DNA from: an uncultured Chloroflexia bacterium
GTDB taxonomy: Bacteria; Chloroflexota; Limnocylindria; Limnocylindrales; CSP1-4
DNA: 64,000 nt
Direction: 5' to 3'
Assembly (NCBI GenBank): GCA_963744095.1
Contig: CAVUSH010000003.1
Coordinates: forward strand, 625,334 to 689,333
A model generated the notes under the pieces. It was not told where the DNA came from, made no database searches, and was given only the letters and a program-made list of their open reading frames with translations. The translations under genes and the position numbers were made by a program. This document shows, piece by piece, positions 26,268-52,439 of the stretch (positions within the stretch are counted from its first letter, which is position 1; each line of letters begins with the position of its first letter).

Positions 26268-28615
26268 TCAGGGTGCCGGCGTCGACGATGACCCGGCCTG
26301 CGAGCCGAAGAACTCCACCTCGGAGAGGGCGACCGGCGCGTTCGGCTTCTCGGCGGGGTAGACGGACCGGATCGTGAGGCGGACACGAGAAGCATCCGTC
26401 GCCCCGACGTCGAACGGCTGGGGCTCGGCCTGGTCCTTGAGCTCATAGCTCTTCGAGGCGATGACCGTGCCAGCCGGGTCGAGGAACTCGAAGGTGACGT
26501 CGCGCGGGCGGGCGAACGCCTTGTACTTGTCTCCTGACGCGCCGGAGGTCACCAGGATCTTCGCCACGGCTGCGGGGGGCGTGAATGCGCCCTCGATGGC
26601 CGGCGGGGACCCGTCGGCGAACGGCGCGGCCCAGAAAGCGAGGGTGCGGTCGAAGGCGAGCCGGGCTGGATTCTCCTTGGTCCCGGGACCGGTCGTCGGG
26701 CCGGAGGTGTAGACGGGGTCCGCCGACGGGACGACCACGTCCTTGGCCGAGTTGATGAACCCATTCACGGCGTCGCGCCAGCTCGGGACCAGCGCGTACC
26801 CCGCCACGAGGCCGACCATCCCGGCGAGGACGACGACCTGGAACCCTACCGAGAAGACCCGGCCGGGCTTGATCGTGCCGCCGGTCCTGCCGTCGGTGCG
26901 CATGCTCTTCGGCCGCTCACCCGCGGCGATCTTCGCCCTGGGCTTGCCGCCACCGAAGATCCGGCGATACCAGGGAACCCTGGAGAGCGCCGCGACGGTG
27001 GCCGTCGCGAGGCTCTGACCACAGCGGCGGCAGAACTTGCGTGCCGGATCGTTCCCGATGCCGCAGTTGCCGCAGACGAGGTCGCCGGGGTTGGGAGCCG
27101 GCGTGGCTTCCTGCGCCGGGCGGGGCCCGGGGCGCGGCCGTTCAGGGCCGGGCTTGACCGCCTCCGGGCGGCGTGCCGCCGGCTGGTCCGGGGGCTGGGT
27201 CGGCGCGGGGGTGGCCGGCGCCACGGGAGTCGAAGGGGACCCAGCGGTCGCGGACGTGCCCGCCGCCGCGGCGACGGCGGGTGCGCTGGGCAGGCGGGCA
27301 GGCGGCTGGGCCGGCCCGGGTCGCTGGGCCGGAGGCTGGGCCGGCGGGGCCGCGGTCGACGCGAGAGTCGGGGGTGCCGCGGCGGCCGGCGGAGGTGTCG
27401 GCAGCTCGGCAGCGACCGCCGCAGCCTCGTGCGGAGGCTCGACGGGCCTGGCTGGCTGGACGAGCGAGCGCGGCTTCGTGGTCGCTGGGGCTCCCGGCAG
27501 CATCGGGCGGATCCGGGCTTCCTTGGCCGCGGGAGGCGACGGCACGGCAGGCTCACCTACCGGCCCAGCTGTCGCGCTGCCGGGCGCGGCGGGAAGACGC
27601 TCCCCGCAGGAAACGCAGAAGACGCGTCCCGCCGGGTTCACGCGGCCGCAGGCCGGGCAGGTTGGCCCTTCAGGCAACGCATCAAGCTGCGGCGGGAGGG
27701 CCGCATCGGAGGCGGGCTCCGGGACCAGCGCGGGGGCGGGGGCGGGTTCGGGCTCGGGGGCGGGCGCGGGTTCGGGCTCTGGCGCGGGCTCTGGCGCGGG
27801 CTCCGGCTCGGATGCGGGGGCGGCTTCGGGTGCGGCCGCGGGGGCGGGTTCGGGGACGGCAGGCTCCGGCTCGGGGGCGGAGGCAGGTTCGGGGACGGGT
27901 GCTGGGGCGGGTTTGGGTTCGGGGACGGGTTCGGGCTCTGGCGCGGGCTCGGGCGCGGGCTCCGGCTCGGGCACGGGGGCAGGCTCGGGCTCCGGCTCGG
28001 GCGCGGCGGCGGGCCCGGGGGCGGGTCCTGCGATGATCCCCGCCGCCGACTCCGGCTCGGGCGCGGGCGTGGGGCAGGTTCGGGCTCCGGCTCGGGGGCG
28101 GGGGCAGGTTCGGGGGCAAGTTCGGGTTCGGGTGCGCCCGGCTCCGACTCCGGCTCGGGCGCGGGCGCCGGGGCGGGTTCGGGGACGGCGGGCTCCGGCT
28201 CGGGCTCCGGCTCGGGGGCCGGGGTTGGCTCCGGCGTGTCGTCGACGATGCGGAAGACCTTCGGGCCGCTGACGACGACAGGCACAGGCTCGGCCTGCGT
28301 GGCGGCCGTGGCAGTGTCGGCGGCGGCCTCCGCGTCGTGAAGGGCTGCCGGCTCGGCGGCCGCGGCCACCGCGGCCTCCTCGGCATTCGCGGCAGGTCCG
28401 GCCTCAGGGCCGCCCAGGCCGACGGCATCGCGGACGCGGCCGATGAATCCCGGCTGCTCCAGCGCAACGGGCGCCTCGGGCGCGACGCGCTCCGGCTCCG
28501 GCACGGGCCCGGGCTCCTCGACCCTGGTCCCGGTCCACTCGAGGAAGCTCCCACACGAGCCACAGAAGCTGTCCGACGAGTCGTTCTGGAGCCCGCACTT
28601 CGTGCAGACGATCAC
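26268..28615 (-). CDS. CisA-like CIS membrane adaptor 1: zinc ribbons, Pro/Glu linker, TM, NADase-type/discoidin-like glycan-binding domain (frameshift at 28071-28074)
   Basis: Three CxxC..N..FCxxC ribbons, single TM, C-terminal ARPRD...LKD..EPQ...RLTIRSVY...ALSEVEFF. Last gene of the baseplate operon. Confidence 0.8.
27720..28232. repeat. Low-complexity EPEPAP-encoding repeats
   Basis: Degenerate 6/12/18-bp periodicity (ggctcg/ggttcg/ggcgcg). Confidence 0.8.
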
Positions 28616-28729
28616 GTGGCGCTCCCTCGTGGACCAGGGCTCTCGACACCATCGCTGCGGTTCGGCCGCATCCCTGCGCGCATGGTAGCGCGCGCCGCGA
28701 CCCGTTCGGCTAGCCCGCTGCGGGGCGGC

Positions 28730-29269
28730 TCACGCCTTGACGATCTCGACCCGGTGTTGGACGTGCGCCGGCTTCGACGCCCCGACGAGCGCCTCGAGCC
28801 GAGCCGCCGGGACGGCCTTCGGGTCCTTCACGCGGACGCGGATGAAGAGGTCCGTCGAGGAGCCCGCCGGAATGGCGGCACCGGCGTCGCGCGACCAGCC
28901 CGCCGCGCCGGGTTCGGCGATCTCGACCTCGCCACCCGTGAAGATGGCCACGTGCGCCGCCAGCCCGGCGGCTGTACCGCGCATCCGGAACAGCTCCGTG
29001 GCGGACGCGACGAACGCCCTGCGCCGTTCGAGCGGCCACGTCTCGTCCGGCGTCGCACCGACCCAGCTCCCGATCCATTCCAGGAAGTCCTCGGGGGCGA
29101 GGGCCGGGTCCAGGTAGGCCGGGAAGCAGTCGAGCACCTGGATTGCCCCGGCCAGGACCTCATCGAACGCCGACGTGAACTGCTGGGTGAAGGCATCGTC
29201 CCGGTAGAGACCGGGGAGATGCTCGCCGATCGGGTGAGGGCTCGCGAGCCCGGGCGGCGTCCCGCGCAC
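28730..29269 (-). CDS. Phage tail protein I-like baseplate wedge subunit
   Basis: LPGLYRDD.F, YLDP..AP.DFL.W, RGT..GL, KPAH. Confidence 0.88.
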   Translation of the reverse strand: MRGTPPGLASPHPIGEHLPGLYRDDAFTQQFTSAFDEVLAGAIQVLDCFPAYLDPALAPEDFLEWIGSWVGATPDETWPLERRRAFVASATELFRMRGTAAGLAAHVAIFTGGEVEIAEPGAAGWSRDAGAAIPAGSSTDLFIRVRVKDPKAVPAARLEALVGASKPAHVQHRVEIVKA

Positions 29270-29271
29270 GG

Positions 29272-31221
29272 TCAGTCCTCCTCGACCATGAGCTGGTGCT
29301 CGTAGCTGAAGACGAGCGCATGGGGCTCCAGGTCGAGGCGCTGTGTTGCCTGGCCCCGCTGCCCTGTGATCGGGTCGGCCCCGAAGAGGCGCACATCCTC
29401 GACCAGCTCGGTCCCCCGCACCCGCTGGAGCACCGAGTAGACCTCGCCGATCTGCACCGGTCGCCCAAATGGCCACCCGGCGCCCTCCGGACCGCCGCTG
29501 ATCGGGTTGAAGTAGGCATACAGTGCTCGCAGGGCGTCCTCCTGGAGGCGACCCGCGGTCACTCGCGGCCGCCTCCGCAGGCGGGCGACGATCGTGATCC
29601 CACGGTAAACCGGCGGCTCGACGATCACCCGCGTCCCAACGACACGCGTCTCATCGAGGCGAGCGGCCACGCGGGCCAGCGTCTCGTCCGACGGGACAAG
29701 CTGCTCGAAGCGAAGGCGCGCATCGACGGCCTGCGCCGCGGGCACCACGAGGACGCGCACGGATCCCGCGTCGGCACCCTCGCCAGCCCCCACGGCGTGG
29801 ACGCGCGCCAGCTCGGGCGCCGCCTCGTGGGAAAGGTGCTCGAAGTCCTCCGTGGTGACGGCGCGCCCGCGGGAACGGAGCGTGATGGGGCCGCGGACCT
29901 TCGCGTTCTCGATCTCCTCCCCGTCGACGCCGCCTGCCATCGGCCGGCGGTTCTCCACGCGGCTCACGTACGGGATGGACGACTTCAGGATGCTGATCGA
30001 CCGCGGCGCGATGTTGCCGAGCCGGCCACCGCCCGTGAGGTAGACGTCGACCTTGATCCGGCGTCCCTTCCCGGGCACCGCCCCGTGGCTCCGCACCGCC
30101 CCGTCCGCCTCGCGGACGGCCGGGCCGAAGGAGATCTCGCCGGCGACGGCATCGAGCACGAAATGCCGATCGTCGGGCCCCGAGCCGGAGAAGTCGGGCA
30201 CCTGCGTCCACTCCAGCCAGCCGTCCTCGTCGTCCGAGACCTGCACGCCGGTGGGCCGATCGCCGGGGACCACCGGTCGTCGTCGCAGGAGGAAGCGCTG
30301 GCCGGCCACGCCCTCGGAGGTGCCGACGATCTCGTCGACGACCACGTCGGCGTGGACGGCGGCGGTCGTGCCACCAACGGTGGAGGCGGCCACGCCGCGC
30401 ACGCTCGGGGATGCGGAGTAGAACGGCTGGCCTTCCTCCGGCGCCGTGACGCGGGCGCGGAGCCACGCGGCGCGGAGCTTCTCGACGACCGAGACCGCGT
30501 GGCCGTTCGGGACGTGGAGGATCACCTCGCCGTCCCGGTTGAGGCCGCCGGTGGCGTCGCGCTCCAGCTCGCAGGGCGTCCAGGCGTCGCCGGTCCAGGC
30601 CTCCCACGCCAAGGGCGGCCAGGTGGGATCGACGCCGACGCCTTCGATCGTGCATCGAAAGTCGAGGCGAACGACGTTGGCGGGCGCCGGCTCGGAGATG
30701 CCGACGAGCAGCAGGTTGCCCGCCACCGGCGGCGCCTCGAAGGCGGCGAAGTCGCGCCCGTTCGTGGCCTCCGTGGTGCGGTCCACGTGCTTCTTGCCAT
30801 CCGGGGTGGTCAGCACGTGGGCGAGCGTCACCGGGACGATCGGGAGGTCGTCGAGCGTCGTGAAGACGACCGCGTCGTCGGTCTCGGTGCGAATCGTCGC
30901 CGCCTGCGTCCCCCCGGCGATGCGGATGGCGTCCGGTTGCGCCGCGGAGAGCCAGAACGTGATCTCGCCGCGGGCCGCCGCCGGCGGGAACAGGCGGACG
31001 CCGATCAGCTCGAGGAACTTGACGTAGTGGCGGTCGGGGACCCGGTTGAGGCGGTACAGGAGCTGGTCGGTCATCCAGGCGAAGGCCTCGATGAGGGTGA
31101 CGCCGGGGTCCGAGACGTTGTGGTCCGTCCACTCCGGGCAGCGCTGCTGGACGAGGCGCTTCGCGTCGTCGACGAGGTCCTGGAAGCGGCGGTCGTCCAG
31201 GTTCGGGACCGGCAGGGCCAT
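29272..31221 (-). CDS. Baseplate J-like assembly protein (Afp11/12-like)
   Basis: MALPVPNLDDRRFQDL, WTDHN.SDPGVTLIE, GG.D.E, RAVT.EDFE, GWPFGR. Confidence 0.92.
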   Translation of the reverse strand: MALPVPNLDDRRFQDLVDDAKRLVQQRCPEWTDHNVSDPGVTLIEAFAWMTDQLLYRLNRVPDRHYVKFLELIGVRLFPPAAARGEITFWLSAAQPDAIRIAGGTQAATIRTETDDAVVFTTLDDLPIVPVTLAHVLTTPDGKKHVDRTTEATNGRDFAAFEAPPVAGNLLLVGISEPAPANVVRLDFRCTIEGVGVDPTWPPLAWEAWTGDAWTPCELERDATGGLNRDGEVILHVPNGHAVSVVEKLRAAWLRARVTAPEEGQPFYSASPSVRGVAASTVGGTTAAVHADVVVDEIVGTSEGVAGQRFLLRRRPVVPGDRPTGVQVSDDEDGWLEWTQVPDFSGSGPDDRHFVLDAVAGEISFGPAVREADGAVRSHGAVPGKGRRIKVDVYLTGGGRLGNIAPRSISILKSSIPYVSRVENRRPMAGGVDGEEIENAKVRGPITLRSRGRAVTTEDFEHLSHEAAPELARVHAVGAGEGADAGSVRVLVVPAAQAVDARLRFEQLVPSDETLARVAARLDETRVVGTRVIVEPPVYRGITIVARLRRRPRVTAGRLQEDALRALYAYFNPISGGPEGAGWPFGRPVQIGEVYSVLQRVRGTELVEDVRLFGADPITGQRGQATQRLDLEPHALVFSYEHQLMVEED

Positions 31222-31224
31222 CGG

Positions 31225-31626
31225 TCAGTCCTCCGCGGGGATCACGTAGAAGGGGAAGACAAGGTTCCGGGGGTCGTTCGACGACCCGACCGTGTAGCGG
31301 ATGTCGATGTAGAGCGTCGAGGCGTCGTCCTCGTCGGGGGCCACGTCGACCTCCTGCACGGCAATGCGGGGCTCCCAGCGGCGCAACGAGGCGCGCACGT
31401 CGGCGGCGATCCGGCCGAACGTCGCGGCATTGGCCGGCGAGAAGACCTCGTCGTGGATCCCGCACCCGAACTCCGGCCGCATGGGCCGCTCGCCGTAGGC
31501 CGTGCCGAGGACCAGGCGGATGCTCTCCTCGATCTCCCGCTCGCGGGTGACCAGGGCGATCCCGCCCGTCGCGTCGGTACGCAGGGGGAAGGCCCACCCG
31601 GCGCCGATGAACTCGTCGTTGACCAT
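31225..31626 (-). CDS. gp25/GpW baseplate protein (Afp9-like)
   Basis: IG.GW.FP, L.T..GERPMRPEFG, WEPRI, NLVFPFY. Confidence 0.93.
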   Translation of the reverse strand: MVNDEFIGAGWAFPLRTDATGGIALVTREREIEESIRLVLGTAYGERPMRPEFGCGIHDEVFSPANAATFGRIAADVRASLRRWEPRIAVQEVDVAPDEDDASTLYIDIRYTVGSSNDPRNLVFPFYVIPAED

Positions 31627-31643
31627 CGGGTCGTCCTCCTCGC

Positions 31644-33419
31644 CTAACCCAGCTGGACCTGGCTGCCGCTGACCTTGGCGATGCCGCTGGTGCCGACCTC
31701 GACCCCGGCCGAGCCCGTCAGCTTCGCCTGGGCGCTGGACGTGATCTCGACTCCGCCCTCGCCGCTGATCTTGACCTTGCCGGTCGCCTTGATCTCGATG
31801 TCGCTCGTGGCCGTCAGCACGATCTTTCCCTCGGATGTGCCGCTCAGCTTCCTGTCAGTCCGGCTCAGGAGGAGGACCACTTCCTCCGCTGCCGTCTGCA
31901 TGCCCAGCGACGAGTTGCCGGGCTTGTCCCACATGTAGACCTGGTTGCCGTCGCGGCTGACGAAATGGCGCCCGTTGAGCTTCCCGCCGTCCACCTCGAT
32001 CGGCGGCGGCGCGTCGCTGCCGTTCCAGAGGCCACCGACGACGAAGGGGCGCTGGCGGTCGCCGCTCTCGAAGGCGACGAGGACCTCGTCGTTGACCTCG
32101 GGGATCCAGACGGTGCCGCGCGACGCGCCGTTGCCGGGCGCGGCGACCCGGGCCCAGTGGCTCTCGTAGTCGGCCGACAGGGACGGGAAGCGGAGCTTCA
32201 CCCGCCCCAGGCGATCGGGGTCGTCGTTGTCCGTCACGATGCCCACGACCACGCCCGCGGACGAGCCGTTCCCGGCCCCTCCGGCGCCGCCTCCGCCCCC
32301 GCTCGCGCCGCCGGCCGCCGCCCCCGCGACGAGACCCATGAGCGAGCGGTCCTGGCGGCCGCTCACGATGAAATGGGTCCGGTAGCCGTCCTGGGGATCG
32401 TACGTGTGGCGCGTGTGGGTGAGCGTGTAGCGCCCGGCGAACGGCGCGGCGACCTGCGAGACGCTCACGGCCGCGCCGGCCTTCACCCGGGGGTTGCCGC
32501 GGGCGATGCCGGAGGCCTCGGCGAACGCGCTCCCGACCTGCTCGGCAAGCGCCTCCGCCGCCCGGTCGGCCTCGGCCTGCGATGGATAGCCGCCCTCGAC
32601 AACGAGGACCGGGCTGCCGAAGCGCCCGGCAAGGCTCCCTGGGTCGTCGGCGAGCTGGGCGGCCGTCGAGCGCGCCTGGGCCGTCCCCACGATCGCCTGC
32701 TTCGTCGACGGATCCCAGCCGCGGACCTCGACGCGGGAGACCTGGCCCGACGACGTCACCCGGGGCCGGAAGTCGAGGAGATCCTGGCCGAACACCAGCT
32801 GGAGCGGGTCGCTCGAGCTGAAGTCCCCACCCTCGGGCGCCTCTGCCGCCTCTCGGGGCCGCCGGAACTCGAGCTTGCCTTCGACGACAGCAACCTCGAA
32901 GCCGACCTCGCGGGCAAGGCCCCGCAGGAACTCCCAGTCCGTCTGGCCCGTCTGGCCGACGTGCTCGTGGACCCGGCCGCTGTCGTCGATCGTCCCGGCG
33001 CCCAGTCCCACCTGCGACGCGATCGTGCGGGCGATGTCGGAGTACTTGACGTTCTGGAAGGTGGCCGAGCTGCGGCCGCGGGAGAGGCGGTGGGCGTGGT
33101 CGTAGCCGCGCGCCACCAGGAGCGGCGCCTTCCCCTCGCGATAGACGCCCTCGAGCGCGGTCACCTCGCCGCTGACCAGCAGGCTGGGGGTGCCCTCCCC
33201 CATGGCCGACGTGGAGACCTTCACCGCGCTGCCCACGCGCAGACGGGCCGTCTCGGCGACGGTCATGTCGGCGGTCTCCTGGAACGTGAGCTCGAACGTG
33301 TCGGGCTGGTGGAGATGGTCGTCCACGGCAACGCGCACGAGTGCCGTCTCGGCCGCGCCGTCGAGCGGCTGGCCGTCCACCTCGACCTTGATCGCGCTCG
33401 CGAGCGCGGCGTCGGGCAC
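31644..33419 (-). CDS. vgrG: VgrG-like hub-spike (Afp8-like)
   Basis: gp27-like hub (Q..TDWEFL, GWDP..K), OB fold GRVKLRFP/WARV/PEVNDEVLVAF, short beta-helical tail. Confidence 0.9.
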   Translation of the reverse strand: MPDAALASAIKVEVDGQPLDGAAETALVRVAVDDHLHQPDTFELTFQETADMTVAETARLRVGSAVKVSTSAMGEGTPSLLVSGEVTALEGVYREGKAPLLVARGYDHAHRLSRGRSSATFQNVKYSDIARTIASQVGLGAGTIDDSGRVHEHVGQTGQTDWEFLRGLAREVGFEVAVVEGKLEFRRPREAAEAPEGGDFSSSDPLQLVFGQDLLDFRPRVTSSGQVSRVEVRGWDPSTKQAIVGTAQARSTAAQLADDPGSLAGRFGSPVLVVEGGYPSQAEADRAAEALAEQVGSAFAEASGIARGNPRVKAGAAVSVSQVAAPFAGRYTLTHTRHTYDPQDGYRTHFIVSGRQDRSLMGLVAGAAAGGASGGGGGAGGAGNGSSAGVVVGIVTDNDDPDRLGRVKLRFPSLSADYESHWARVAAPGNGASRGTVWIPEVNDEVLVAFESGDRQRPFVVGGLWNGSDAPPPIEVDGGKLNGRHFVSRDGNQVYMWDKPGNSSLGMQTAAEEVVLLLSRTDRKLSGTSEGKIVLTATSDIEIKATGKVKISGEGGVEITSSAQAKLTGSAGVEVGTSGIAKVSGSQVQLG

Positions 33420-33422
33420 CCC

Positions 33423-34124
33423 TCAGCCCTCCCGCGAGGCGAGGCGCCGCGCTTCGTCGGCGGTGGGGACGAGGAGGCGCGTCCCGGCCGCCACGCGGAG
33501 GGGATCGTCGATCTCGTTGAAGGCGGCGATCCCCCGCCAGAGGCTGGCGTCCCCGTACTCGCGCCAGGCGACTGAGTGGAGGCTGTCGCCCGCCCCGACG
33601 AGGTGGCTCCGGCGGCTCTCATGTGATCCGGACGACGGGTTCTGCTTCGGCGAGTCCTCCGGGACTTCCTCGAGGGAGATCGTCGCGCTCGCACGGACCG
33701 GCGTTCCGTCGGGTTTGAAGAGGACGTACTTGGCATTGACGGTCTTGAGGAAGAACCTCAGGTCCGCGAGGATGCGGTTGCTGCCCCATTCGAACCCGAG
33801 GACCGGCGGGCGCGGCAGCTTCTTGGTGATCGACGTGGGCGTCGGCCTGGTCCACCCGAAGAGCGTGGTCACGCTGCGCGTGACGTCGGCGTCGGCCGCG
33901 TCCCAGGCGTCGAACCAGATCTCCATCTGGACGGTCTGGGGGCCGGCGCCCGTGAACTGGGGCTTGCCGGCGGATCCGGCCCCCTTCTGCTGGGGCCGGT
34001 TCCAGTTGGCCGACTTGGCAGTGGTCAGCTCGGCCGGGTTGTACATGAACGTGAGCTCGCGCGTCTCCGGGTCGCCGTCGACGACTCGCAGCTTCGCCTT
34101 CTGGAGCGCGCCGCCGCTGAGCAT
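33423..34124 (-). CDS. CIS tube-initiator with LysM (Afp7-like)
   Basis: FMYNP.EL, F..DGTPVRA, QNPSSG, GDSL..VAW.EYGD...WR.IA..N.IDDP. Confidence 0.9.
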   Translation of the reverse strand: MLSGGALQKAKLRVVDGDPETRELTFMYNPAELTTAKSANWNRPQQKGAGSAGKPQFTGAGPQTVQMEIWFDAWDAADADVTRSVTTLFGWTRPTPTSITKKLPRPPVLGFEWGSNRILADLRFFLKTVNAKYVLFKPDGTPVRASATISLEEVPEDSPKQNPSSGSHESRRSHLVGAGDSLHSVAWREYGDASLWRGIAAFNEIDDPLRVAAGTRLLVPTADEARRLASREG

Positions 34125-34552
34125 CAACGTGCGAACCCGTTGTGGACCAGCTCGAGGACCTCGAGAGCCACGGCGTTCGTCCCCGTGTCGAGGGTCGGTC
34201 CGGACCAGCGGACCGGGTAGATCCCCTGGAGACGCCAGCTGGCGACGGTCTCGCCACCGCCATCGAGCACAGCGATCTCGGCGGTCGACCGCTTCGGATC
34301 GCTGGCCACCGAAGCCAGCCAGGCGGCCACCTTCTGGGTGTCTCGATCGACCGGGCGCGTGAGCTTCAGGTTCTGGTACTTGGCCCGCCCGGGGAACCGG
34401 TGGACGTAGTCGTTGTTGCCGCCCTCCTTCACCTCCTGGACGTCGTACTCGACCGTCAGCCCCTCGCACTTCGTCCACGAGCCGAGGTCGGTCTGGTCGT
34501 CGAGGGTCACCTTGAAGCAGAGGGTCAGGCCGTAGTTCACGCGCTCGGACAT
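34124..34552 (-). CDS. T4 gp19-like tube protein 2 (Afp5-like)
   Basis: CEGL, EGGNN..., L.L.R, P.RWSGP, ELVH.GF. Confidence 0.9.
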   Translation of the reverse strand: MSERVNYGLTLCFKVTLDDQTDLGSWTKCEGLTVEYDVQEVKEGGNNDYVHRFPGRAKYQNLKLTRPVDRDTQKVAAWLASVASDPKRSTAEIAVLDGGGETVASWRLQGIYPVRWSGPTLDTGTNAVALEVLELVHNGFAR

Positions 34553-34556
34553 GACA

Positions 34557-36755: not shown

Positions 36756-36762
36756 GACGAGA

Positions 36763-36921
36763 TCACTCCCCTTCGGTCAGACGCTGGTTGATCCGGGCGA
36801 TCTCCTCGACGAACCGCAGCCGGTCCGGGTGCTCGAGGTCGAGAATCGCGTCCATGGACCAGTGCAGGTGGTAGGCGACGTACGCAACCTCCTCGAAGAG
36901 ACGGTCGGCCGCGTACGTCAC
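36763..36921 (-). CDS. DUF6760-like small protein (candidate frameshift extension of the chaperone)
   Basis: L.EEVAYVAYHLHWS.D.IL.LEH.DR...V.EI..IN. Confidence 0.8.
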   Translation of the reverse strand: MTYAADRLFEEVAYVAYHLHWSMDAILDLEHPDRLRFVEEIARINQRLTEGE

Positions 36922-36944
36922 GACCCCCCCGGCGCCGCGCCTCC
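36877..36944 (-). other. Candidate programmed -1 ribosomal frameshift cassette
   Basis: Minus strand: GGAGG (36944-36940), 9 nt, G7 (36930-36924), 4 nt, then a hairpin with a perfect 9-bp stem (36919-36911 / 36885-36877). The downstream ORF is in the -1 frame. Confidence 0.6.
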
Positions 36945-37355: not shown

Positions 37356-37356
37356 C

Positions 37357-40314: not shown

Positions 40315-40320
40315 CCTTCG

Positions 40321-42414: not shown

Positions 42415-42415
42415 G

Positions 42416-44917: not shown

Positions 44918-44933
44918 CGAGGTGGAACGAGCG

Positions 44934-45998
44934 ATGAACGAGGAACCCGGCTGGCTGCGGAGCGAGGCCGCGGCGCGGTCCAGGGAGACCGAGCTCGACG
45001 GCGGCACGAAGAAGCCGGCGGGCAGGGGCGCAGGCCGCGAGCAGGATCGCGGCCTGGCGGCGGAGGCGTCGCGCGCGCTCGCTGCCGGTCAACCAGAGAA
45101 GCTGCGGCCCGGCGCGGTGATGCACCTCCAGAGAGCCGCCGGGAACGCAGGCGTCGCGCGCTTCCTGGGCGAGGAGCGCGAGCCCGAATCTCCGGTCAAG
45201 GGGATCGTGGGCCGTGGCGCCGGCGCCCCCCTCGACGACGCGTCTCGCGCGCGCATGGAAGCCAGCTTCGGCACCGACTTCTCGGATGTTCGTGTCCATA
45301 CCGGCAGCTCCGCGGCCGAGTCGGCCCGGGCGGTGGACGCCCACGCCTACACCGTCGGGAACGAGGTCGTCCTGGGCGACGGGCAGGCGCCGGGTTCGCC
45401 GGCATACGAGCGGACGCTGGCCCACGAGCTGATGCACGTCGTCCAGCAACGGTCGGGTCCGGTGGACGGAACGCCCGCCGGAGGCGGCATCAGCGTCTCC
45501 GATCCCGCGGACCGCTTCGAGCGGGCGGCGGAGGCCACGGCGGACGACGTCGTGAGCACCGGGCGCGCGCCCGAGGCCTCCACGGGGAACGTCTCCAGCA
45601 CATCCGTGCAGCGCGAACGACCGTTGGAGGAGGAGGAGCGCGACCCGACCGAGGCGGACACCCTGCCGTCGATGGCGGAGACGGCGACGGCCGAGACGGC
45701 CCAGGCGGGGGCGAAGACACCGGCGACGGCCGAGACGGCCCAGGCCGGTGCCGCCGAGGGCGCCGTGGTCGAGGGGCAGCCGAACCGCGAGCCGACCTCG
45801 GCCCCCGAGGCCGAGTCCACGGCCGGGACCGCCCAGGCCGGCCCGATCGAGGCTGCGCCAGGCGAGGAGGAGCAGGAAGAGGTCCAGGAGCTTGCGATCC
45901 AGCGCCAGGAGGCGCCCGAAGAGGACGAAGAGGTCCAGGAGCTCGCGATCCAGCGTCTCCAGCGCGGTGACGACCTGAGCGGCGCGCGCATTGCCTAG
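44934..45998 (+). CDS. DUF4157 (eCIS core domain) protein
   Basis: LQRAAGNAGV, G.PLD...R..ME..FG.DFSDVRVH, A.AYTVG, LAHELMHVVQQ, D.FE..A, acidic tail with QR repeats. Confidence 0.9.
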   Translation: MNEEPGWLRSEAAARSRETELDGGTKKPAGRGAGREQDRGLAAEASRALAAGQPEKLRPGAVMHLQRAAGNAGVARFLGEEREPESPVKGIVGRGAGAPLDDASRARMEASFGTDFSDVRVHTGSSAAESARAVDAHAYTVGNEVVLGDGQAPGSPAYERTLAHELMHVVQQRSGPVDGTPAGGGISVSDPADRFERAAEATADDVVSTGRAPEASTGNVSSTSVQRERPLEEEERDPTEADTLPSMAETATAETAQAGAKTPATAETAQAGAAEGAVVEGQPNREPTSAPEAESTAGTAQAGPIEAAPGEEEQEEVQELAIQRQEAPEEDEEVQELAIQRLQRGDDLSGARIA

Positions 45999-46037
45999 GA
46001 CGTTCCGAGGTCATCCTCGTACGAGGCTCGACTGCCC

Positions 46038-46958
46038 ATGAGCCTGGTTCACGACCGTGACGTCGACGCCGCCCTGCCGGGCCACGGCCCAGCCGTCGAC
46101 CGCGGTCCGGGGCCGCTCCGCCCGATCGACCCTGGTCCCGCGGGACCCGGCAGCGCGCCGGTCGCAGGCGCGATCGACGGGGTTCCTGCCGCCTGGACGG
46201 CGGCGCTCGCGGGCGGGCGTCGGGGCGGTCATCCGGTCGTCCGGGGCTCCGTGACCCGGCTCCAGGCGGCGGCCGGCAACTCGGCCGTTGCCGACCTGCT
46301 GACCTCGACGGCGGGCGACTCCCGCGCGACGCGGCGCGCGGGTCCGACGCTCCGTCACGCGGGCGAGGCCGACCTGCTCGGGACCGATCCGGGCGCCGCC
46401 TCGCTCGGAACCGGCGAGGCAGCCCCGCTCGACGAGCCCGGGCAGAGTCCCGCCACCCCCGCTCCAACCACGTCCTTCACGAAGGTCGGCCCGCCAACCA
46501 AGTCCGGCTACACGGTCTCGGGGACCCTCCGCAAGGCGGCCGAGGCGGTGGCGGCGCGCCCGGAGGCCGGGGCCACCATCACGACCCCGGATCTCGTCTC
46601 AGCCGGCAATGGCACGCGCATGACCCAGGCCCAGGTGACCGTGACCCAGGTCGTCGAGCTCCCCGACTGGGACGGCAAGGCCTCGGCGACGCAGAACCAG
46701 CGGACGGAATGGGACCGCTTCAAGGCCGCCATCACGGCCCACGAGGACGGCCACGTCGCGACGGACGTCACGGCGTTCGCCGGTGCCCATACGAAGATCC
46801 TGGCCAAGAAGACGACCGCCGAGTCGAACACGGAGTACGACACGATCGTGACCGGGGCCGACACGGCCAACGCGACCTTCGACACGAAGACCGACCACGG
46901 CCGCAATGCCGGCACGACCATCAACCCGAACATCGACGAGGTGACGAAGGTCCCCTGA
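46038..46958 (+). CDS. Candidate CIS effector with DUF922-like zinc-protease domain
   Basis: LQAAAGNSAV N-terminal motif, LPDW...WDRF......HEDGH (HExxH), D..T.HG. Confidence 0.7.
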   Translation: MSLVHDRDVDAALPGHGPAVDRGPGPLRPIDPGPAGPGSAPVAGAIDGVPAAWTAALAGGRRGGHPVVRGSVTRLQAAAGNSAVADLLTSTAGDSRATRRAGPTLRHAGEADLLGTDPGAASLGTGEAAPLDEPGQSPATPAPTTSFTKVGPPTKSGYTVSGTLRKAAEAVAARPEAGATITTPDLVSAGNGTRMTQAQVTVTQVVELPDWDGKASATQNQRTEWDRFKAAITAHEDGHVATDVTAFAGAHTKILAKKTTAESNTEYDTIVTGADTANATFDTKTDHGRNAGTTINPNIDEVTKVP

Positions 46959-47003
46959 GATCGGGCCGCGGCAGGCGGCGGGGCGGCCACCGCGGCTGGA
47001 CCG

Positions 47004-47669
47004 CTAGATCAGCCCCTGGCGGATCGCGTAGGCCACCGCGTGCGTCCGGTTGCGGAGGTCGAGGCGCGACGTGATGTCATGGATCACGTTCTTCACGGTC
47101 CGTTCCGAGAAGAAGAGGCTGTGCCCGACCTCGGCGGTGTCGAGCCCGTCGGCGAGAAGCCGCAGGACCGCCACCTCGCGCTCCGTGAGGCCTGCAAAGG
47201 TGAGGCCGCGGGGGTGCAGCACCTGCCGCTGCAGGCGACCGACCTGGGAGAGGAGCCGGCCAAGGAGGTCCGGCGGGAGCGTCCCCTCGCCGACAGCGGC
47301 AGCCCCGATCGCCGACGCGAGCTGGGCGGGCGTCGCCTGGCTGCGGCGGACGACCCCGCTCACGCCGGCCTCGACGGCCGCGAGAAGCCCGGCATCGTCC
47401 ACCTTCGCCACGAGGAGCACCACGTGCTCCTGGCCCGTGGCGCGGATCGTCCGGATCTCCCGCGTCGTGGCCTCGTCGACCTCGTCCGCCACGACCACGA
47501 CGACGCCGGCCGCTCCCGGCGCGACGGCGTCCACGACCTCCATCGTGGGCTGGTCGTGGAGCTGGGCGGCGAGCCCCGCCCGGGAGAGCGGATCGGTCGT
47601 CGCGATCGCGACCGCGAGACGTTCGAGCGGGAGGCTGCGCAGGGCGTGGACGGCGACGGACGACGTCAT
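47004..47669 (-). CDS. LuxR/NarL-family regulator with atypical receiver domain
   Basis: GLTERE..VLRLLADG, SERTVKN, LRNRTHAVAYA. The receiver lacks the canonical DD pair. Confidence 0.9.
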   Translation of the reverse strand: MTSSVAVHALRSLPLERLAVAIATTDPLSRAGLAAQLHDQPTMEVVDAVAPGAAGVVVVVADEVDEATTREIRTIRATGQEHVVLLVAKVDDAGLLAAVEAGVSGVVRRSQATPAQLASAIGAAAVGEGTLPPDLLGRLLSQVGRLQRQVLHPRGLTFAGLTEREVAVLRLLADGLDTAEVGHSLFFSERTVKNVIHDITSRLDLRNRTHAVAYAIRQGLI

Positions 47670-47734
47670 CGGCTGGTCCCCCATGTGCAGGACCGGTCTC
47701 CTGCCGGCCACGCGACGGCAGCATGCGAGGGGGG

Positions 47735-47764
47735 ACCTAACGGGCACCTAACGCCCACCTAACG
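47735..47764 (-). promoter_or_regulatory. Three direct ACCTAACG repeats in 11-bp phase (SARP/BTAD-type site) upstream of luxR
   Basis: Copies start at 47735, 47746 and 47757. Minus-strand CATGCT -10-like hexamer at 47720-47725. Confidence 0.7.
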
Positions 47765-47766
47765 GG

Positions 47767-47780
47767 CGCCCGATCGGGCA
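47767..47780. promoter_or_regulatory. 14-bp palindromic box cgcccgatcgggca
   Basis: Matches the boxes at 39463-39520. Confidence 0.55.
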
Positions 47781-47837
47781 GGCCGCCTGCGCGAATCTCG
47801 CTGGCGCCGGGCGTGAGCGGCTCGTACACTCGCCGCC

Positions 47838-49121
47838 ATGGGAGCCCTCGTCACGCTGTCCGAGAAGTCCATCGAGGTACTGCCGGGCGCCGTCGCCACG
47901 TGCACGGTGACCGTCAAGAACACCGGCACCGTCGTCGACCAGTTCACCATCGACATCCTCGGCGATCCGGCCCCCTGGGCCGCCGCCGAGCCGCCGACGC
48001 TGTCGCTCTTCCCCGGCGCCGAGGAGTCCACCGCGATCTTCTTCCGGCCGCCCCGGGCAGCCGACACGCCGACCGGCGAGCTGCCGTTCGGTGTTCGCGC
48101 CAGGTCGCGCGAGGACCCGGCCGGGTCCGCGGTCGAGGAGGGCGTCCTCCTCGTGGGCGCCTACCAGGACACGTTCGCCGAGCTGGTCCCGCGCACCTCG
48201 CGCGGCAGCCGGGGGGCAACCCACGAGCTTGCCGTCGACAACCGGGGCAACAGCCGGCTCAACGCCACCGTCACCGCCGGCGACCAGGACCAGCTGCTCG
48301 GGTTCGACGTGACACCCCCGGGCCTCGTGGTGGATCCCGGGACGGCCGGCTTTGCGAAGGTCCGGGTCAAGCCCCGCAAGCGCTTCTGGCGCGGCCAGCC
48401 GAAGACCCGGCCGTTCAAGGTCGCCGTCCAGGGCGAGGGCGGCCCGCCCATCCTCCTCGACGGATCGATCCTCCAGGAAGCCCTGCTGCCGCGCTGGCTC
48501 ATCCCGGCGCTGCTCGCCGCGCTCGCCGCGCTGATCGCCCTGATCGTCATCTGGCTGATGTTCCTCCAACCCGCCATCAAGAGCGCCGCAACCCAGGCTC
48601 TCGAGGATGCCGGGATCACCCCGCTCCCCACGCAGGCCGGCGGTGGCGGCGGAGCGGGAGGCGGTGGCGGGACCGCCACGCCGACGCCTGCCCTGACGAC
48701 CGCACCGGCGACCCCGACCGCGACGCCGGGCCCCACGCCTCCTCCGGGCGAGACGCCCACACCCGCTCCCACGCCCACACCGGCTCCCACGCCGACCCCG
48801 CCGCCGGTCGGCGAGGGGGTTCCTGCCGACGGCCGGCTGGCGGTCGACGGCACCTACCCGAACAGCACCACGTTCGCCAAGGTCTTCTACCTGACCGACC
48901 TCGTCTTCGCGAACCCGAGCGGGAAGGCCGGGACCCTGAAGCTGAAACGGGGGCCGCTCGACCTGATCACGCTGCGCCTCGAGAACTTCCGGGACCTCGA
49001 CTTCCACTACGTCACCCCGATCGTCGTCCAGCCCGGCGAGAAGCTGGCCCTGGTCGTGAGCTGCACCGGCGGCGGCGCATGCGACCCGTCGGTCTACTAC
49101 TCCGGGTTCACGAAGCCCTGA
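47838..49121 (+). CDS. CIS-associated bitopic membrane protein (N-terminal Ig-like domains, TM, Pro/Thr linker, external domain)
   Basis: V.NTG.VVDQF, L.L.PG, ELVP..S, V.N.GN N-region as in so-called hydrolytic proteins of Streptomyces CIS loci. One TM. Confidence 0.7.
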   Translation: MGALVTLSEKSIEVLPGAVATCTVTVKNTGTVVDQFTIDILGDPAPWAAAEPPTLSLFPGAEESTAIFFRPPRAADTPTGELPFGVRARSREDPAGSAVEEGVLLVGAYQDTFAELVPRTSRGSRGATHELAVDNRGNSRLNATVTAGDQDQLLGFDVTPPGLVVDPGTAGFAKVRVKPRKRFWRGQPKTRPFKVAVQGEGGPPILLDGSILQEALLPRWLIPALLAALAALIALIVIWLMFLQPAIKSAATQALEDAGITPLPTQAGGGGGAGGGGGTATPTPALTTAPATPTATPGPTPPPGETPTPAPTPTPAPTPTPPPVGEGVPADGRLAVDGTYPNSTTFAKVFYLTDLVFANPSGKAGTLKLKRGPLDLITLRLENFRDLDFHYVTPIVVQPGEKLALVVSCTGGGACDPSVYYSGFTKP

Positions 49122-49126
49122 CGCCC

Positions 49127-51193
49127 ATGGCCGATCGTCCGGGCCGGAGGGCCCGGCCCTCCGCCATCGTGGCCGCGGTGGGCCTGGCGGCCGTCGTGGC
49201 CGGGAGCGCCCTGGCGGGGGCTGCGCCGACTGTCCCGGCGCGCCCGGTCCATCCGGCGGCCCTGCCGGCAGGCTCCGTCGAGACGCCCGGCCTGACCGAG
49301 CTGGTCTCGACCCCCCAGGTCCCCGACGGGGCGCTGGGGGCGACCCCCGCCGCGGCGCTCAACGACACCTTCGGCGCCCCGACGATCTCGTCCAGCGGGC
49401 GGTATGTCGTCTTCCTCCAGGCAGCGGACGGTGGGCGCGGGAACCAGCTCATGCTCCGCGACCGGACGGCCCAGACCACGACGCTGCTTGACGCATCCGA
49501 CGCGAATGGGCCTCTGCGCCAACCCACCATCTCCGCCGATGGGCGCTGGGTCGCCTACGTCAGGCCCGAGGACGGGCCCACCACCGTCGTCCTGGTGGAG
49601 GTCGCGACCGGCAGCCACACGGTCGTGCCCCAGCCACCCGGCCGCAACCGCAACCCTGACCAGCCGGCGCTCAGCCGCGACGGGCGCTTCCTCGCCGTTC
49701 GGACCGAGGTCCTGAAAGGGTCCGAGATCCTGGTCCTGGACCGCACGAGCGCGGCCTGGGAGACGATCTCGGTCGACGTGGACGGGCAGCCGACGGCGCT
49801 CTCCAGCACTCTCGCCGCCCAGCCGGCCATCTCGTGGGACGGCCGCTTCGTCGCCTTCACCGCCGTCGCCACCTTCGCCCGGCTTGTCGTCACGCCCAGG
49901 CCGAGCAACGACTACCGGCAGGTCTTCCTGCGCGACCGCCGGGCGGGAACCACGACCCTGATCTCCGTCGGCCCGGCCGGCACGCAGGGACTCGGCCCCT
50001 CGCTGACGCCCGCGATCAGCGGCAACGGCGCGGTTGTCGCCTTCGCCAGCGCCGCGAGCGACCTCGTGGCCGACGACGCAAACCAGCAGATCGACGTCTT
50101 CGCCTGGTCGAGCTCGACGGGTGGCGTGGAGATCGTCTCGCGCTCCACGGCCGGCGCCGCGGGAAACGCCGCGAGCGGCGTGCCCGCGGTGAACGGCGAC
50201 GGGGCGCAGGTGGCATTCGCGTCCGCCGCGACGACGCTCGTCCCCGGCGACACGACCGCGGGTCCCCCCGGCACGGCCCGAATCGCCGCCAACAACCCGT
50301 TCGCGATCGCCGGCGACATCTTCGTCCGCGATCGCGGCGCAGCCCGGACGTCCCGCCTCTCGGTCGGCCGCGACAACGAGAGCGAGGCGAACGGGCCCAG
50401 CACCTATCCGTCGATCTCCACGACCGGGCGCTACGTCGCCTTCACGTCGGCGGCCGACAACCTCGTCGCGAGCGAGGCGAACAAGGCGAGCGACGTCTTC
50501 GTGCGCGACCGACCGCCCCGCGTCGAGGCGGGACCGGACCCGGTCGACTTCGGCTCCGCCCCCATCGGGTCGCTGGGGACGACGCGGCCGGCCACGATTC
50601 GCAGCACGGGCATCGTCCCGGCCCGTATCGGGGCGATCACGATCGGCGGCGCCAACGCGTCCGACTTCGTCGTGGCAGCGAACCCCTGCTCCGACCGCAC
50701 GCTTCCCCCGGGCGCCACGTGCGAGCTCCAGGTGCTCTTCGTCGGGACGGCGAAGGGCGATCGGGAGGCGACACTGCAGATCGCCAACGACGCGGGCAGC
50801 CCGGTGGTCCTGCGCCTCGTCGGCCAGGTCGGAATCCCGAAGCTGAGCGTGAATCCGAAGAGCGGGCCTCCGGGCCTGGTGGTGATCGCGACCGGCTCCG
50901 GCTTCCCGCCGAACGCCCCGATCGCGCTGCGCTGGTCCGTGGGCACCACCGCGACGCCCCTCGCACCGGTGGTCTCCGACGCCACCGGCGCCTTCAGGGC
51001 CCAGGTGCTCATCCTGCCGCGCGACCGCGTCGGCAAGCGGAATCTTCGCGCCCTCGCCTCCGTGCCGGGCCTGGTGGTGGACCCGGTGGTGGCCGCGTTC
51101 CTCGTCGTTCCATCGACGGCCGAGCCGCCGATCAGCGGCCTCGTGCAGATCTTCGCGGCAACGCCGGGCGAGCCGATCATCCTGCGCCACTGA
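49127..51193 (+). CDS. Secreted TolB/PD40-like beta-propeller with choice-of-anchor-D/Ig-like domains
   Basis: Signal peptide, repeated P.IS.DGR.VAF.S.A.NLV..D.N...DVF.RDR blades, DFG...SDF....C...L.PG..C. Confidence 0.82.
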   Translation: MADRPGRRARPSAIVAAVGLAAVVAGSALAGAAPTVPARPVHPAALPAGSVETPGLTELVSTPQVPDGALGATPAAALNDTFGAPTISSSGRYVVFLQAADGGRGNQLMLRDRTAQTTTLLDASDANGPLRQPTISADGRWVAYVRPEDGPTTVVLVEVATGSHTVVPQPPGRNRNPDQPALSRDGRFLAVRTEVLKGSEILVLDRTSAAWETISVDVDGQPTALSSTLAAQPAISWDGRFVAFTAVATFARLVVTPRPSNDYRQVFLRDRRAGTTTLISVGPAGTQGLGPSLTPAISGNGAVVAFASAASDLVADDANQQIDVFAWSSSTGGVEIVSRSTAGAAGNAASGVPAVNGDGAQVAFASAATTLVPGDTTAGPPGTARIAANNPFAIAGDIFVRDRGAARTSRLSVGRDNESEANGPSTYPSISTTGRYVAFTSAADNLVASEANKASDVFVRDRPPRVEAGPDPVDFGSAPIGSLGTTRPATIRSTGIVPARIGAITIGGANASDFVVAANPCSDRTLPPGATCELQVLFVGTAKGDREATLQIANDAGSPVVLRLVGQVGIPKLSVNPKSGPPGLVVIATGSGFPPNAPIALRWSVGTTATPLAPVVSDATGAFRAQVLILPRDRVGKRNLRALASVPGLVVDPVVAAFLVVPSTAEPPISGLVQIFAATPGEPIILRH

Positions 51194-51235
51194 TCCCTGC
51201 CCCGCCCGGCCTGCGTGGGCTACGATCGGGGCGAC

Positions 51236-52439
51236 ATGACCACCTGCGCGAAATGCGGAACGGCGAACGTCGCGGGAGACGCCTTCTGCGGCAATTGCGG
51301 CGCCTTCCTCGAGTTCGCCGCCGAAGAGGCCGCCGAGGACGCGCAGGTCGCGGTCCCCGCGGATCCGGCGGAGCCGCCGGCAGCGGCCGCCGGACCGACG
51401 ATTCCCACGCCTCCGGCCGCCGTCGCAGCCGAGTCGACCGGCCCCACCTGTTTCGCCTGCGGGCGCGTCAACCCGGCCGGTCGGCGCTTCTGCATCTCCT
51501 GTGGCGAGCGCCTGCCGGCGGCGTCAGCGTCGGTTGGGCCCGGCCGGGCATCGGGATCGGAGACGGCGCCAGGCGCCGCCCGCGGCGGAGCCACCGCCCG
51601 CCGCCGGCCCGGCGAAGCCGGCCTGGGAATTCCCCACTGCTCCGGTCGCCGCCGCTTCGGCCGTGGTGGCGCCCGAAGCCCCAGCGCCGCCGGTCGCCTC
51701 GTCCGGCGGCGGCTCGCGCCTTCCGCTGATCGGGGCGACCCTCGTCGTCCTCGCGCTCCTGGCCGGCGGGGCCGTCATCGTCCTCGGGGGCGGCACGGGC
51801 GCCGGCACTGCCGGGACGCCCGCGAGCCCGCCCCCATCGAGCGCCCTCGCCTCGGCGACCCCGGGCGCGGAGCAGAGCGCCGAGCCGACGGCACCCCCGG
51901 GGACGCCCGCCGCGACCGAGGCGCCGACCAGCCCGCCGGAGCCGACGGCACCTGCAGCCACGGTCCCCCCGGGCCCATCGGTCGGCATTGCGATCACGGC
52001 GGCGAAGGCCTCCAGCCAGCTGGCGGCCAACCGGGCCCCGAAATACCTCTACGACGGATCGCCGGTGACGGCCTGGAAGAGCAAGACGGGCAAGCTGGAC
52101 GGCTCCTGGGTCGAGGTCACCTTCGCCGCCGCGGCCGTCACCAAGATCCAGGTCTGGGCGGGCTGGCAACGGAACGAGCCGCTCTTCTACGGCAACCACC
52201 GGCCCCGGAACGTGACGGTCGCCTTCGACGGCGGCGTGCCGGTCCCCCTCGAGCTCAAGGACGCCCTCGGCGCCCAGGGCGTGGCCATTCCGCCCGAGCT
52301 GGGGATCGTCGGCGCAACGCGTCTGCGCATCACGATCATCGACACCTACCCATCACGGAAGACCTCCGCCGGCGGGAGCCCCTCGAAGGAGGTCGCGATC
52401 AGCGAGATCCGCATCTTCGGCGTCCCGGTCGTGCCGTGA
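51236..52439 (+). CDS. CisA-like adaptor 2: double zinc ribbon, TM, NADase-type/discoidin-like glycan-binding domain (frameshift near 51572)
   Basis: CAKC..N..FCGNCG.FLE and CFAC..FCISC. TM. ASS...DG...TAW...N.RPR...LKD..G.Q...ISEI.IFG. Confidence 0.8.

Follow-up and report, generated by a model that had tools for sequence, protein, structure and literature searches.

The present study describes a contractile injection system (CIS) in a 64,000-nucleotide stretch of bacterial DNA, hereafter called the window. Our data indicate that the locus at 26268-52439 is probably a type IId, Streptomyces-like CIS of a Limnocylindria-type Chloroflexota soil bacterium, which would act in the cytoplasm. The complete Afp-type core was recognised by Pfam, that is, sheath, two tubes, tube initiator, VgrG, gp25, Baseplate_J and P2_I proteins, cap and AAA ATPase. 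The core set and its gene order are those of the Streptomyces (IId) systems, there is no tail fibre, and a CisA-type bitopic membrane protein, homologous to a copy in Streptomyces sp. NBC_00005, is encoded after the baseplate wedge. This architecture and the CisA-type protein had been proposed in an earlier note on the same DNA and both stood.

Architecture of the locus

The window lies on an 868-kb contig of a genome assembly (G000) of 3.21 Mb in 9 contigs, which is 84.6% complete. Genes were called by third-position guanine-plus-cytosine (GC) content, because the window is 70-77% GC; the composition of the CIS locus does not set it apart as an island from the rest of the window. Pfam matches of the parts are above the curated cut-offs unless stated otherwise, and nearly every named part was confirmed in this way (Table 1). 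Two divergent gene sets meet at 39381-39570. The minus-strand set runs from 39380 to 26268, beginning with the sheath and ending with a zinc-ribbon membrane protein, and the plus-strand set runs from 39571 to 52439, beginning with the cap and ending with a second zinc-ribbon membrane protein, with a LuxR gene inside it on the minus strand. The genome contains only one copy of the sheath.

The part list of the earlier note could be retained for the sheath, the two tubes, VgrG, gp25, the two wedges, cap, ATPase and DUF4157 protein. It could not be retained for a LysM protein and a chaperone: Pfam finds no LysM in the tube initiator even at E<=1, the C-terminal 45 residues of which are LysM-like by eye only, and the supposed chaperone, a conserved protein of 145 aa, has no family match. 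One further protein of the minus-strand set, of 732 aa, has no Pfam match either. It is conserved only at its ends; in the related locus L003 tblastn matches nothing but residues 1-107 and 699-731. At 36918-36921 the open reading frame (ORF) of the 145-aa protein ends in a TGA which overlaps a GTG suited as the start codon of the DUF6760 gene (GTGA), and this suggests translational coupling of the two genes. Programmed -1 frameshifting, as in the G/GT chaperones of phages, was considered for this pair and dropped, since the stop/start overlap explains the arrangement through coupling.

It had also been claimed that capsid, terminase, integrase, lysis genes and PAAR are absent. A genome search for PAAR had been set beforehand as a check, and it returned no match in the 3.21 Mb; HK97 capsid, TerL_ATPase and VipB likewise gave no match genome-wide. 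For the window genes that it covered, the Pfam scan reported no family of phage capsid, terminase, integrase or lysis proteins. For holin, endolysin and integrase the absence holds for these scanned genes, no genome-wide search for them having been made. The locus does not have the features of a prophage or tailocin, as neither capsid nor terminase nor a lysis cassette is seen in the window genes scanned. With regard to a type VI secretion system (T6SS), VipB (PF05943) has no match in the genome, TssM, TssJ and TssL were not searched for, and the Baseplate_J protein matches TssF below threshold only.

Host and distribution of the system

Sheath relatives were confirmed in species-representative genomes, and the best 80 of the 597 are referred to here as the related loci. 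Among these the closest sheaths come from metagenome-assembled genomes (MAGs) titled Chloroflexota (96% and 82% identity), Ca. Limnocylindrales (80%) and 'Chloroflexia' (79%). The sheaths of actinomycetes are 58-67% identical to that of the window, with the same gene order. The flanking FabI, a marker independent of the CIS, has four organism-named relatives among its best 120, all of them Chloroflexota or Chloroflexi, and Ca. Limnocylindrales is filed under Chloroflexota by NCBI. Judged by these relatives, the host is a Chloroflexota (Limnocylindria-like) soil bacterium and not a streptomycete, as the earlier note had suspected.

The sheath was found in 16 of the 24 other genomes of the same genus and in none of 16 sister-family genomes of about 1.1 Mb each. 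In an even draw of the phylum, which includes G000 and G269, sheath homologues occur in 81 of 401 Chloroflexota genomes; the figures are 57 of 322 for high-quality genomes and 5 of 23 for the genomes of its own family. In two genomes of the same genus (G005:C7 and G022:C9) the sheath gene gave two separate matches, which points to indel errors or to decay.

A quick tree of 81 sheaths was computed with IQ-TREE (LG+G4, SH-aLRT; midpoint root for drawing only). The window falls in a group of 20 rows, namely the window itself, nine Chloroflexota, seven Actinomycetota, two Dormibacterota and one Verrucomicrobiia-titled MAG, and a branch with support 94 splits this group from 61 Actinomycetota rows which hold all Streptomyces. 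For the placement in IId it should be noted that all rows are the window's own related loci, with Streptomyces at 58-62% sheath identity, and that no dbeCIS reference is in the tree. The topology fits transfer among soil phyla, the direction of which is not given by the tree. Three related CIS loci (L009, L006 and L027; 70-74% sheath identity) lie on contigs titled Verrucomicrobiia and Ca. Dormiibacterota, which could reflect inter-phylum transfer or mis-binning.

The earlier note had called the system uncharacterised. This has to be narrowed, since cytoplasmic IId CIS of Roseiflexus, of Thermomicrobium-like Chloroflexota and of Deinococcota were imaged in 2026 (PMC12998442), and roughly one in five of the Chloroflexota genomes sampled has a sheath homologue. 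The locus opens no new category. Within the searchable literature text PMC12998442 alone treats Chloroflexota CIS, and no paper on a CIS in Limnocylindria was found there.

CisA1 and CisA2

The gene cisA1 directly follows Cis12, as in G002, G003, G004 and Streptomyces sp. NBC_00005, and so occupies the fibre position, without any tail-fibre gene. Its product comprises a zinc ribbon, PE-rich repeats, a zinc ribbon, a Pro-rich linker, a zinc ribbon, a W-Y-R-R motif, one transmembrane segment and an extracytoplasmic F5/8-type-C (CBM32-like) domain. The paralogue cisA2 codes for two zinc ribbons, a transmembrane segment, a Pro-rich linker and an F5/8-type-C domain. In Streptomyces sp. NBC_00005 the gene after Cis12 (L084: 624-2645) codes for 673 aa with an N-terminal zinc ribbon, a long Gly/Ser-rich stretch, a second ribbon, W-W-R-R, one transmembrane segment and a C-terminal domain. 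The C-terminal 225 residues show 10 invariant columns in an alignment of 13 sequences, made up of both window copies (cisA1 and cisA2), that of Streptomyces and those of G002, G003 and the same genus; over these residues window cisA1 and the NBC_00005 copy are 25% identical. PF25302 (F5/8 type C; cut-off 27 bits) scores 30.6 bits for the Streptomyces copy, 60 for cisA2 of G003 and 26.6 for cisA2 of the window. By these alignments and domain matches, the product of cisA1 is genuinely homologous to the CisA-position protein of Streptomyces sp. NBC_00005.

An AlphaFold2 (AF2) model of CisA1, built on a 53-row alignment, places a transmembrane helix at residues 27-52 and reaches a predicted local distance difference test score (pLDDT) above 95 at residues 80-215. 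The best Foldseek matches are fucose lectins, CBM32 and F5/8-C domains (E 1e-7, target TM-score about 0.7). CisA1 has one hydrophobic segment and a Lys/Arg-rich N-terminus which is predicted to lie inside; it is thus predicted to be a single-pass protein with its N-terminus in and its lectin-type domain out. Sco4242 is described as having a transmembrane segment as well as a sugar-binding domain that is conserved (PMC10066040), the topology of Sco4242/CisA is given as N-terminus in and C-terminus out (PMC12237407, PMC10066040), and the gene of CisA is said to lie 'just downstream of the baseplate' (PMC12237407). The modelled fold and the position of CisA1 agree with this published description.

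No other cytoplasmic part of CisA is as conserved as the N-terminal zinc ribbon, in which C4, C7, G8, F17, C18, C21, G22 and L25 are invariant in 18 N-termini, including those of cisA2 and the Streptomyces copy. With a regular expression, a zinc-ribbon ORF after Cis12 was detected in 8 of the 15 loci that extend at least 250 nt past Cis12 (23 loci hold the Cis12 C-terminus). The protein of L010 was missed by the expression and matched by tblastn, and the same expression found no zinc-ribbon ORF within 700 nt after Cis12 in the Streptomyces loci L066, L077 and L080. In a Streptosporangiaceae MAG (L017: 4210-4614, minus strand) a Sco4256-like protein starts with a CisA-type CxxCG...FCxxCG zinc ribbon. 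The sharing of this ribbon hints that it could be a common CIS-docking module.

The candidate dock is the Cis11 wedge. Complex prediction for Cis11 with residues 1-80 of CisA1 gave a score of 0.33 against 0.00 for the best control, with a partner pLDDT of at least 52 and at least 93% of contacts agreeing between runs. This offers weak support. In the calibration 58 of 80 solved complexes reached this mark, against 2 of 110 mismatches; only 7 of the 80 solved complexes, but both of the mismatches, did so with scores of 0.60 or less.

It was not practicable to count CisA proteins by profile search, the F5/8-C-like family being too broad for it: the CisA1 C-terminus matched 10,297 representatives at E<=0.001, 3,551 at E<=1e-10 and 80 at E<=1e-30. 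A word-indexed search with the same C-terminus returned close relatives only (28 proteins at 47% identity or more). So far CisA has been described in Streptomyces and other actinomycetes only. The eLife paper, in its available text, limited its search for CisA homologues to 120 genomes of actinomycetes, and its table might list non-actinomycete ones, as might Supplementary Table 4 of Casu 2023 (PMC10066040). For Roseiflexus no close cisA homologue is reported in the available text of Gaisin et al. (ISME J 2026, PMC12998442).

A variable cargo slot

Three adjacent genes on the plus strand, coding for the 841-aa, DUF4157 and DUF922 proteins, share the N-terminal motif L-Q-[RA]-x-A-G-N-x-[AG]-V (LQ..GN). 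Only four occurrences of the motif were found in the six-frame translation of the 3.21 Mb, three of them in these genes. In the related loci it occurs 58 times, in 43 of the 80 (1.45 Mb), and always on the upstream side of the sheath. We infer that LQ..GN is a cargo loading tag. The fourth occurrence in the genome lies in an orphan ORF of 482 aa on contig C8 (293921-295368, minus strand; L099: 6922-8370), which has a hydrophobic helix and no Pfam match and adjoins a 1164-aa protein starting with zinc ribbons. This orphan may be a CIS cargo encoded off the locus.

The 841-aa protein has the motif at its N-terminus, followed by 19-aa repeats, an Ala-rich helical C-terminal half and weakly hydrophobic helices. 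The 19-aa repeats are encoded by a near-perfect 57-nt tandem repeat at 42718-43131 (7.3 copies, 98% matches), and a second array of 39/99 nt is present within the same gene at 43270-43521. No tblastn match to this protein was found in the 80 related loci or in the same-genus genome G004, and it has no Pfam match. It was considered as a counterpart of Sle1 and rejected on these results, only its position being Sle1-like.

Comparison with G004 shows where the variation lies. The structural genes are 90-98% identical between the two genomes, the DUF4157 protein is 57% identical, and G004 has no counterpart of the 841-aa or the DUF922 protein; its slot (L102, G004:C2, about 3200-6100) holds another protein with the motif, one that has helical repeats and an HExxH in its C-terminal part. 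By this comparison the cargo slot is hypervariable. Small DUF4157 proteins are reported to bind to proteins of the spike complex, and a tape-measure-like neighbour is reported to be cargo (PMC13277306). By analogy, the DUF4157 protein of the window is likely to be a Sle2-like cargo adaptor which binds the spike.

The bitopic effector homologue, the propeller and the regulators

The earlier note had counted three bitopic proteins as an expanded set of membrane adaptors. Two of them stand as a CisA orthologue and a CisA paralogue, both frame-shifted in this assembly, and the third has to be assigned otherwise. This third protein has a cytoplasmic Ig-like N-domain, a transmembrane segment at residues 225-243, a Pro/Thr linker and a small C-domain. 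By tblastn its N-terminal 260-320 residues are 33-38% identical to Streptomyces proteins encoded by one or two paralogous genes that lie between those of the ATPase and the DUF4157 protein. This is the slot of Sco4256-4258, which are described as single-transmembrane proteins that have the N-terminus in common and act as CIS effectors (Casu et al. 2023, PMC10066040). On the strength of the sequence match and the slot, the protein is a homologue of this effector family and therefore not an extra adaptor.

The secreted beta-propeller of the earlier note was upheld. The predicted protein has a hydrophobic, signal-like N-terminus, called by eye, and its AF2 model, a moderate one with pLDDT 71, matches TolB in Foldseek at E 1e-13. 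Orthologues are present in G002, G003, G004 and L008, and actinomycete loci give partial matches only. The module of LuxR, Sco4256-like, propeller and cisA2 genes is kept in G003 and G004, and it is seen without cisA2 in the available DNA of G002 and L008.

A LuxR regulator beside the locus, also claimed earlier, is conserved in the loci of Chloroflexota and Streptomyces alike. The AfsR-like regulator, which is convergent with cisA1, lies beside a cisA-like gene in G002 and G003, is 85% identical in G004 and is present in the Acidimicrobiaceae locus L014.

Proposed mode of action and alternative explanations

Because of the analogy with S. coelicolor, a cytoplasmic mode of action is proposed for the system. 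The particles would assemble free in the cytoplasm and would load cargo through the DUF4157/spike route, the candidates being the 841-aa, DUF922 and Sco4256-like proteins. Under stress they would dock to the membrane from within, with the cytoplasmic part of CisA as the link and the Cis11 wedge as its probable point of contact. Firing would then damage the envelope of the producer itself; other cells would not be the target, and the outcome would be regulated cell death. The lectin-type ectodomains of both CisA proteins, like the exported TolB-like propeller, could report or bind cell-wall glycans.

Several points weigh against this reading. The case for cytoplasmic action borrows from Streptomyces and from other Chloroflexota that were imaged. 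The search for lysis families covers the Pfam-scanned genes of the window, in a genome 84.6% complete. The equivalence with Sco4242, like that with Sco4256-4258, would rest on synteny in other Streptomyces genomes, and PF25302 was not reported by Pfam for the C-terminal domain of window CisA1. The docking score of Cis11 and CisA1 is weak and, by the calibration, oftener wrong than right without a strong prior, so that it can be taken as a lead only. Neither cisA1 nor cisA2 has an intact reading frame in this assembly. That both shifts fall in the cisA genes (3.5 kb of 64 kb) is unlikely for random error, and real inactivation or slippage is possible, unlikely as we hold it to be.

The frameshifts lead to a first alternative, namely that the locus is decaying in this strain, with both cisA genes truly frame-shifted and particles which may assemble without their trigger. 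We consider it improbable. It would account for two of two cisA genes being interrupted, by one frame change near 28040-28070 in cisA1 and one near 51575-51590 in cisA2, and the sheath was not found in 8 of the 24 same-genus genomes, which points to a dispensable system. Against decay, the remaining genes of the locus have open frames, the downstream frames of the split genes keep a third-position GC of 0.88-0.90, no stop has accumulated, and the break in cisA1 sits between degenerate 6/12/30-nt repeat arrays. Among five same-genus genomes cisA1 is intact in three (G004, G007, G010) and cisA2 in four (G004, G007, G009, G010); outside these five, cisA1 is intact in G002 and G003 and cisA2 in G003. 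In G017 and G009 cisA1 is split by several frame changes inside the PE repeat, and cisA2 is split in G017. The assemblies with breaks are 60%, 78% and 85% complete, the others 91-95%. Since orthologues are intact in same-genus genomes and the broken assemblies are the less complete ones, assembly errors in repeat-rich, GC-rich DNA appear to be the clearly favoured cause of the cisA frameshifts. Among public reads there were only four contig-type runs, which contain 0.05-0.10 of the words; over 26200-46199 none of their listed pieces bridges 28040-28070. A tblastn frameshift scan against G004 was given up, because it missed the known cisA shifts and was confounded by matches in alternative frames of the closely similar, GC-rich DNA, for example in cbiM-cbiQ (11522-13873), and no error rate was drawn from it.

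It is about equally improbable, in our judgement, that the locus codes for an extracellular CIS (eCIS) whose particles leave the cell through lysis and target other organisms, with the lectin proteins as receptor-binding or target-recognition parts. The family derives from eCIS, F5/8-type-C and CBM32 domains are common receptor-binding modules, a cargo slot hypervariable between close relatives is usual for antagonistic effectors, and the discussion in ISME J 2026 (PMC12998442, available text) leaves an eCIS-like role open for Roseiflexus. However, the predicted lectin domains lie behind a transmembrane helix whose Lys/Arg-rich N-terminal side is inside, neither tail-fibre nor lysis genes are seen in the window, and the closest characterised systems are cytoplasmic. 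The least probable of the alternatives is a membrane-anchored, outward-firing system, like the T6SS or the thylakoid-anchored Anabaena CIS, in which CisA1 and CisA2 hold the particles for contact-dependent delivery: two membrane proteins with conserved cytoplasmic zinc ribbons, the weakly predicted Cis11 contact and an exported propeller in the same module would suit it, but no T6SS sheath or VipB was found in the genome, and the related particles of Streptomyces, Roseiflexus and Deinococcota are described as free-floating (PMC12237407, PMC12998442).

The proposed cytoplasmic, CisA-dependent system could be given a more specific form, which we put forward as a speculation that is itself unlikely to hold in full. 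This would be a two-receptor envelope-sensing CIS, in which the different lectin ectodomains of CisA1 and CisA2, together with the propeller, sense damage or remodelling of the wall and signal through the zinc ribbons to Cis11, thus licensing firing. The ribbon in the L017 protein would then belong to a general baseplate-dock module, and LQ..GN would be a swappable cargo mark. Less likely than this is that frameshift-prone PE repeats make cisA a phase-variable on/off switch of the suicide trigger.

Gene list and neighbouring genes

The genes of the locus and the adjoining regulator are collected in Table 1. The flanks consist of housekeeping genes. On the upstream side these are genes for a multicopper oxidase, CoA transferases, an aminotransferase, FabI, a GGDEF protein, cobalt and ABC transporters and CopC; on the downstream side they are genes for an alpha-amylase-family protein, an amidinotransferase, an M20 peptidase and the RACo, MTHFR and pterin-binding proteins. 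The last three (RACo for corrinoid activation, MTHFR with a C-terminal extension, and a pterin-binding methyltransferase) form one operon at 59001-63267, a corrinoid methyl-transfer module. At 11522-13873 a 783-aa open frame fuses a partial CbiM (130 of 205 profile positions) with CbiQ; its third-position GC is low (0.82) and it shows frame changes relative to G004, so that it would reflect either another indel in the assembly or simply the alternative frames that stay open where DNA is GC-rich. A tRNA-Pro (CGG) lies at 15311-15397 in a 1-kb stretch without a called gene, away from the CIS locus, and no integrase was seen with it.

Table 1. Genes of the CIS locus and of the adjoining regulator, with positions in the window
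Feature	Position	Strand	Evidence or remark
AfsR/SARP-like regulator (STAND/AAA NTPase + Trans_reg_C + BTAD), convergent with cisA1	23258-26230	+	Pfam
cisA1, CisA orthologue	26268-28615	-	split ORFs 27638-28615 and 26268-27974
Cis12-type wedge protein (Tail_P2_I)	28730-29269	-	Pfam; 94% identity in G004
Cis11-type wedge protein (Baseplate_J)	29272-31221	-	Pfam; 50-67% identity across 39 loci
gp25-like sheath initiator (Cis9)	31225-31626	-	Pfam
VgrG-like spike (Cis8)	31644-33419	-	Pfam Phage_GPD and Phage_base_V; no PAAR gene after it
Tube initiator, CIS_tube, Cis7-like	33423-34127	-	Pfam
Second tube protein, gp19 family (Cis1b)	34124-34552	-	Pfam
732-aa Pro/Ala-rich protein, length determinant/tape-measure-like by position only	34557-36755	-	
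DUF6760 small protein	36763-36972	-	Pfam; likely GTG start
Conserved 145-aa protein, family unassigned	36918-37355	-	56-82% identity across 45 tabulated loci
Tube protein, gp19 family (Cis1a)	37357-37815	-	Pfam
Sheath (Cis2)	37863-39380	-	Pfam
Cap (Pvc16_N, Cis16)	39571-40314	+	Pfam; start possibly as early as 39379
WHD + AAA ATPase (Cis15)	40321-42414	+	Pfam
841-aa cargo candidate	42392-44917	+	overlaps DUF4157 gene by 50 nt
DUF4157/eCIS_core protein, HExxH and LQ..GN	44868-45998	+	Pfam
DUF922 protein, HExxH-type motif and N-terminal LQ..GN, cargo candidate	46038-46958	+	Pfam
LuxR/GerE-type regulator	47004-47747	-	Pfam
Bitopic protein, Sco4256-4258-slot homologue	47838-49121	+	tblastn
Exported TolB-like beta-propeller, C-terminal Ig-like domains	49127-51193	+	Pfam PD40
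cisA2, CisA paralogue	51215-52439	+	split ORFs 51215-52483 and 51501-52439

Comparison with known systems and significance

The presence of a CisA orthologue and a paralogue in a small-genome, presumably non-sporulating soil Chloroflexota suggests that CisA-dependent firing has a greater age or mobility than the life cycle of Streptomyces. What is new in detail is a putative CisA outside Actinomycetota, a CisA paralogue together with a TolB-like propeller module, a conserved zinc ribbon and a motif-tagged variable cargo slot. These provide testable features, namely the parts of CisA (N-terminal zinc ribbon, ribbon before the transmembrane segment, lectin ectodomain), the candidate contact of CisA and Cis11, and a swappable motif-tagged cargo.

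Compared with Afp, PVC and AlgoCIS, the window has the same Afp-type core, including cap, ATPase and DUF4157 protein, but it lacks an Afp13-type tail fibre and PAAR and has a membrane protein in the fibre position. The Roseiflexus system and its Chloroflexota-Deinococcota clade (PMC12998442) resemble it in the Chloroflexota host, in a lineage of IId type and in being presumed cytoplasmic by the authors. The window has a clear cisA homologue, whereas no close one is reported for Roseiflexus in the available text. In our own tree, which holds no Roseiflexus sequences, the window sheath groups with Limnocylindrales, Dormibacterota and some Actinomycetota rows. With the SLP of S. lividans (Sle1, a tape-measure-like cargo, and Sle2, a small DUF4157 protein; PMC13277306) it shares a large helical protein encoded directly upstream of a small DUF4157 gene; the likeness of Sle1 to the 841-aa protein is one of position and composition only, and in the window the two genes overlap.

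CIS-Sc and CIS-Sv of S. coelicolor and S. venezuelae (type IId) are like the window in core genes and their order, in a CisA-type protein after Cis12, in the lack of a tail fibre and PAAR, and in possessing a Sco4256-4258-slot protein, a DUF4157 protein and a LuxR regulator. The window differs from them in its 3.2-Mb Chloroflexota genome, in the second CisA within a TolB-like propeller module, in the AfsR-like regulator beside cisA1, in the three zinc ribbons and long PE repeats of CisA1, in its unrelated cargo (841-aa and DUF922 proteins) and in another operon layout on the cap/ATPase side.

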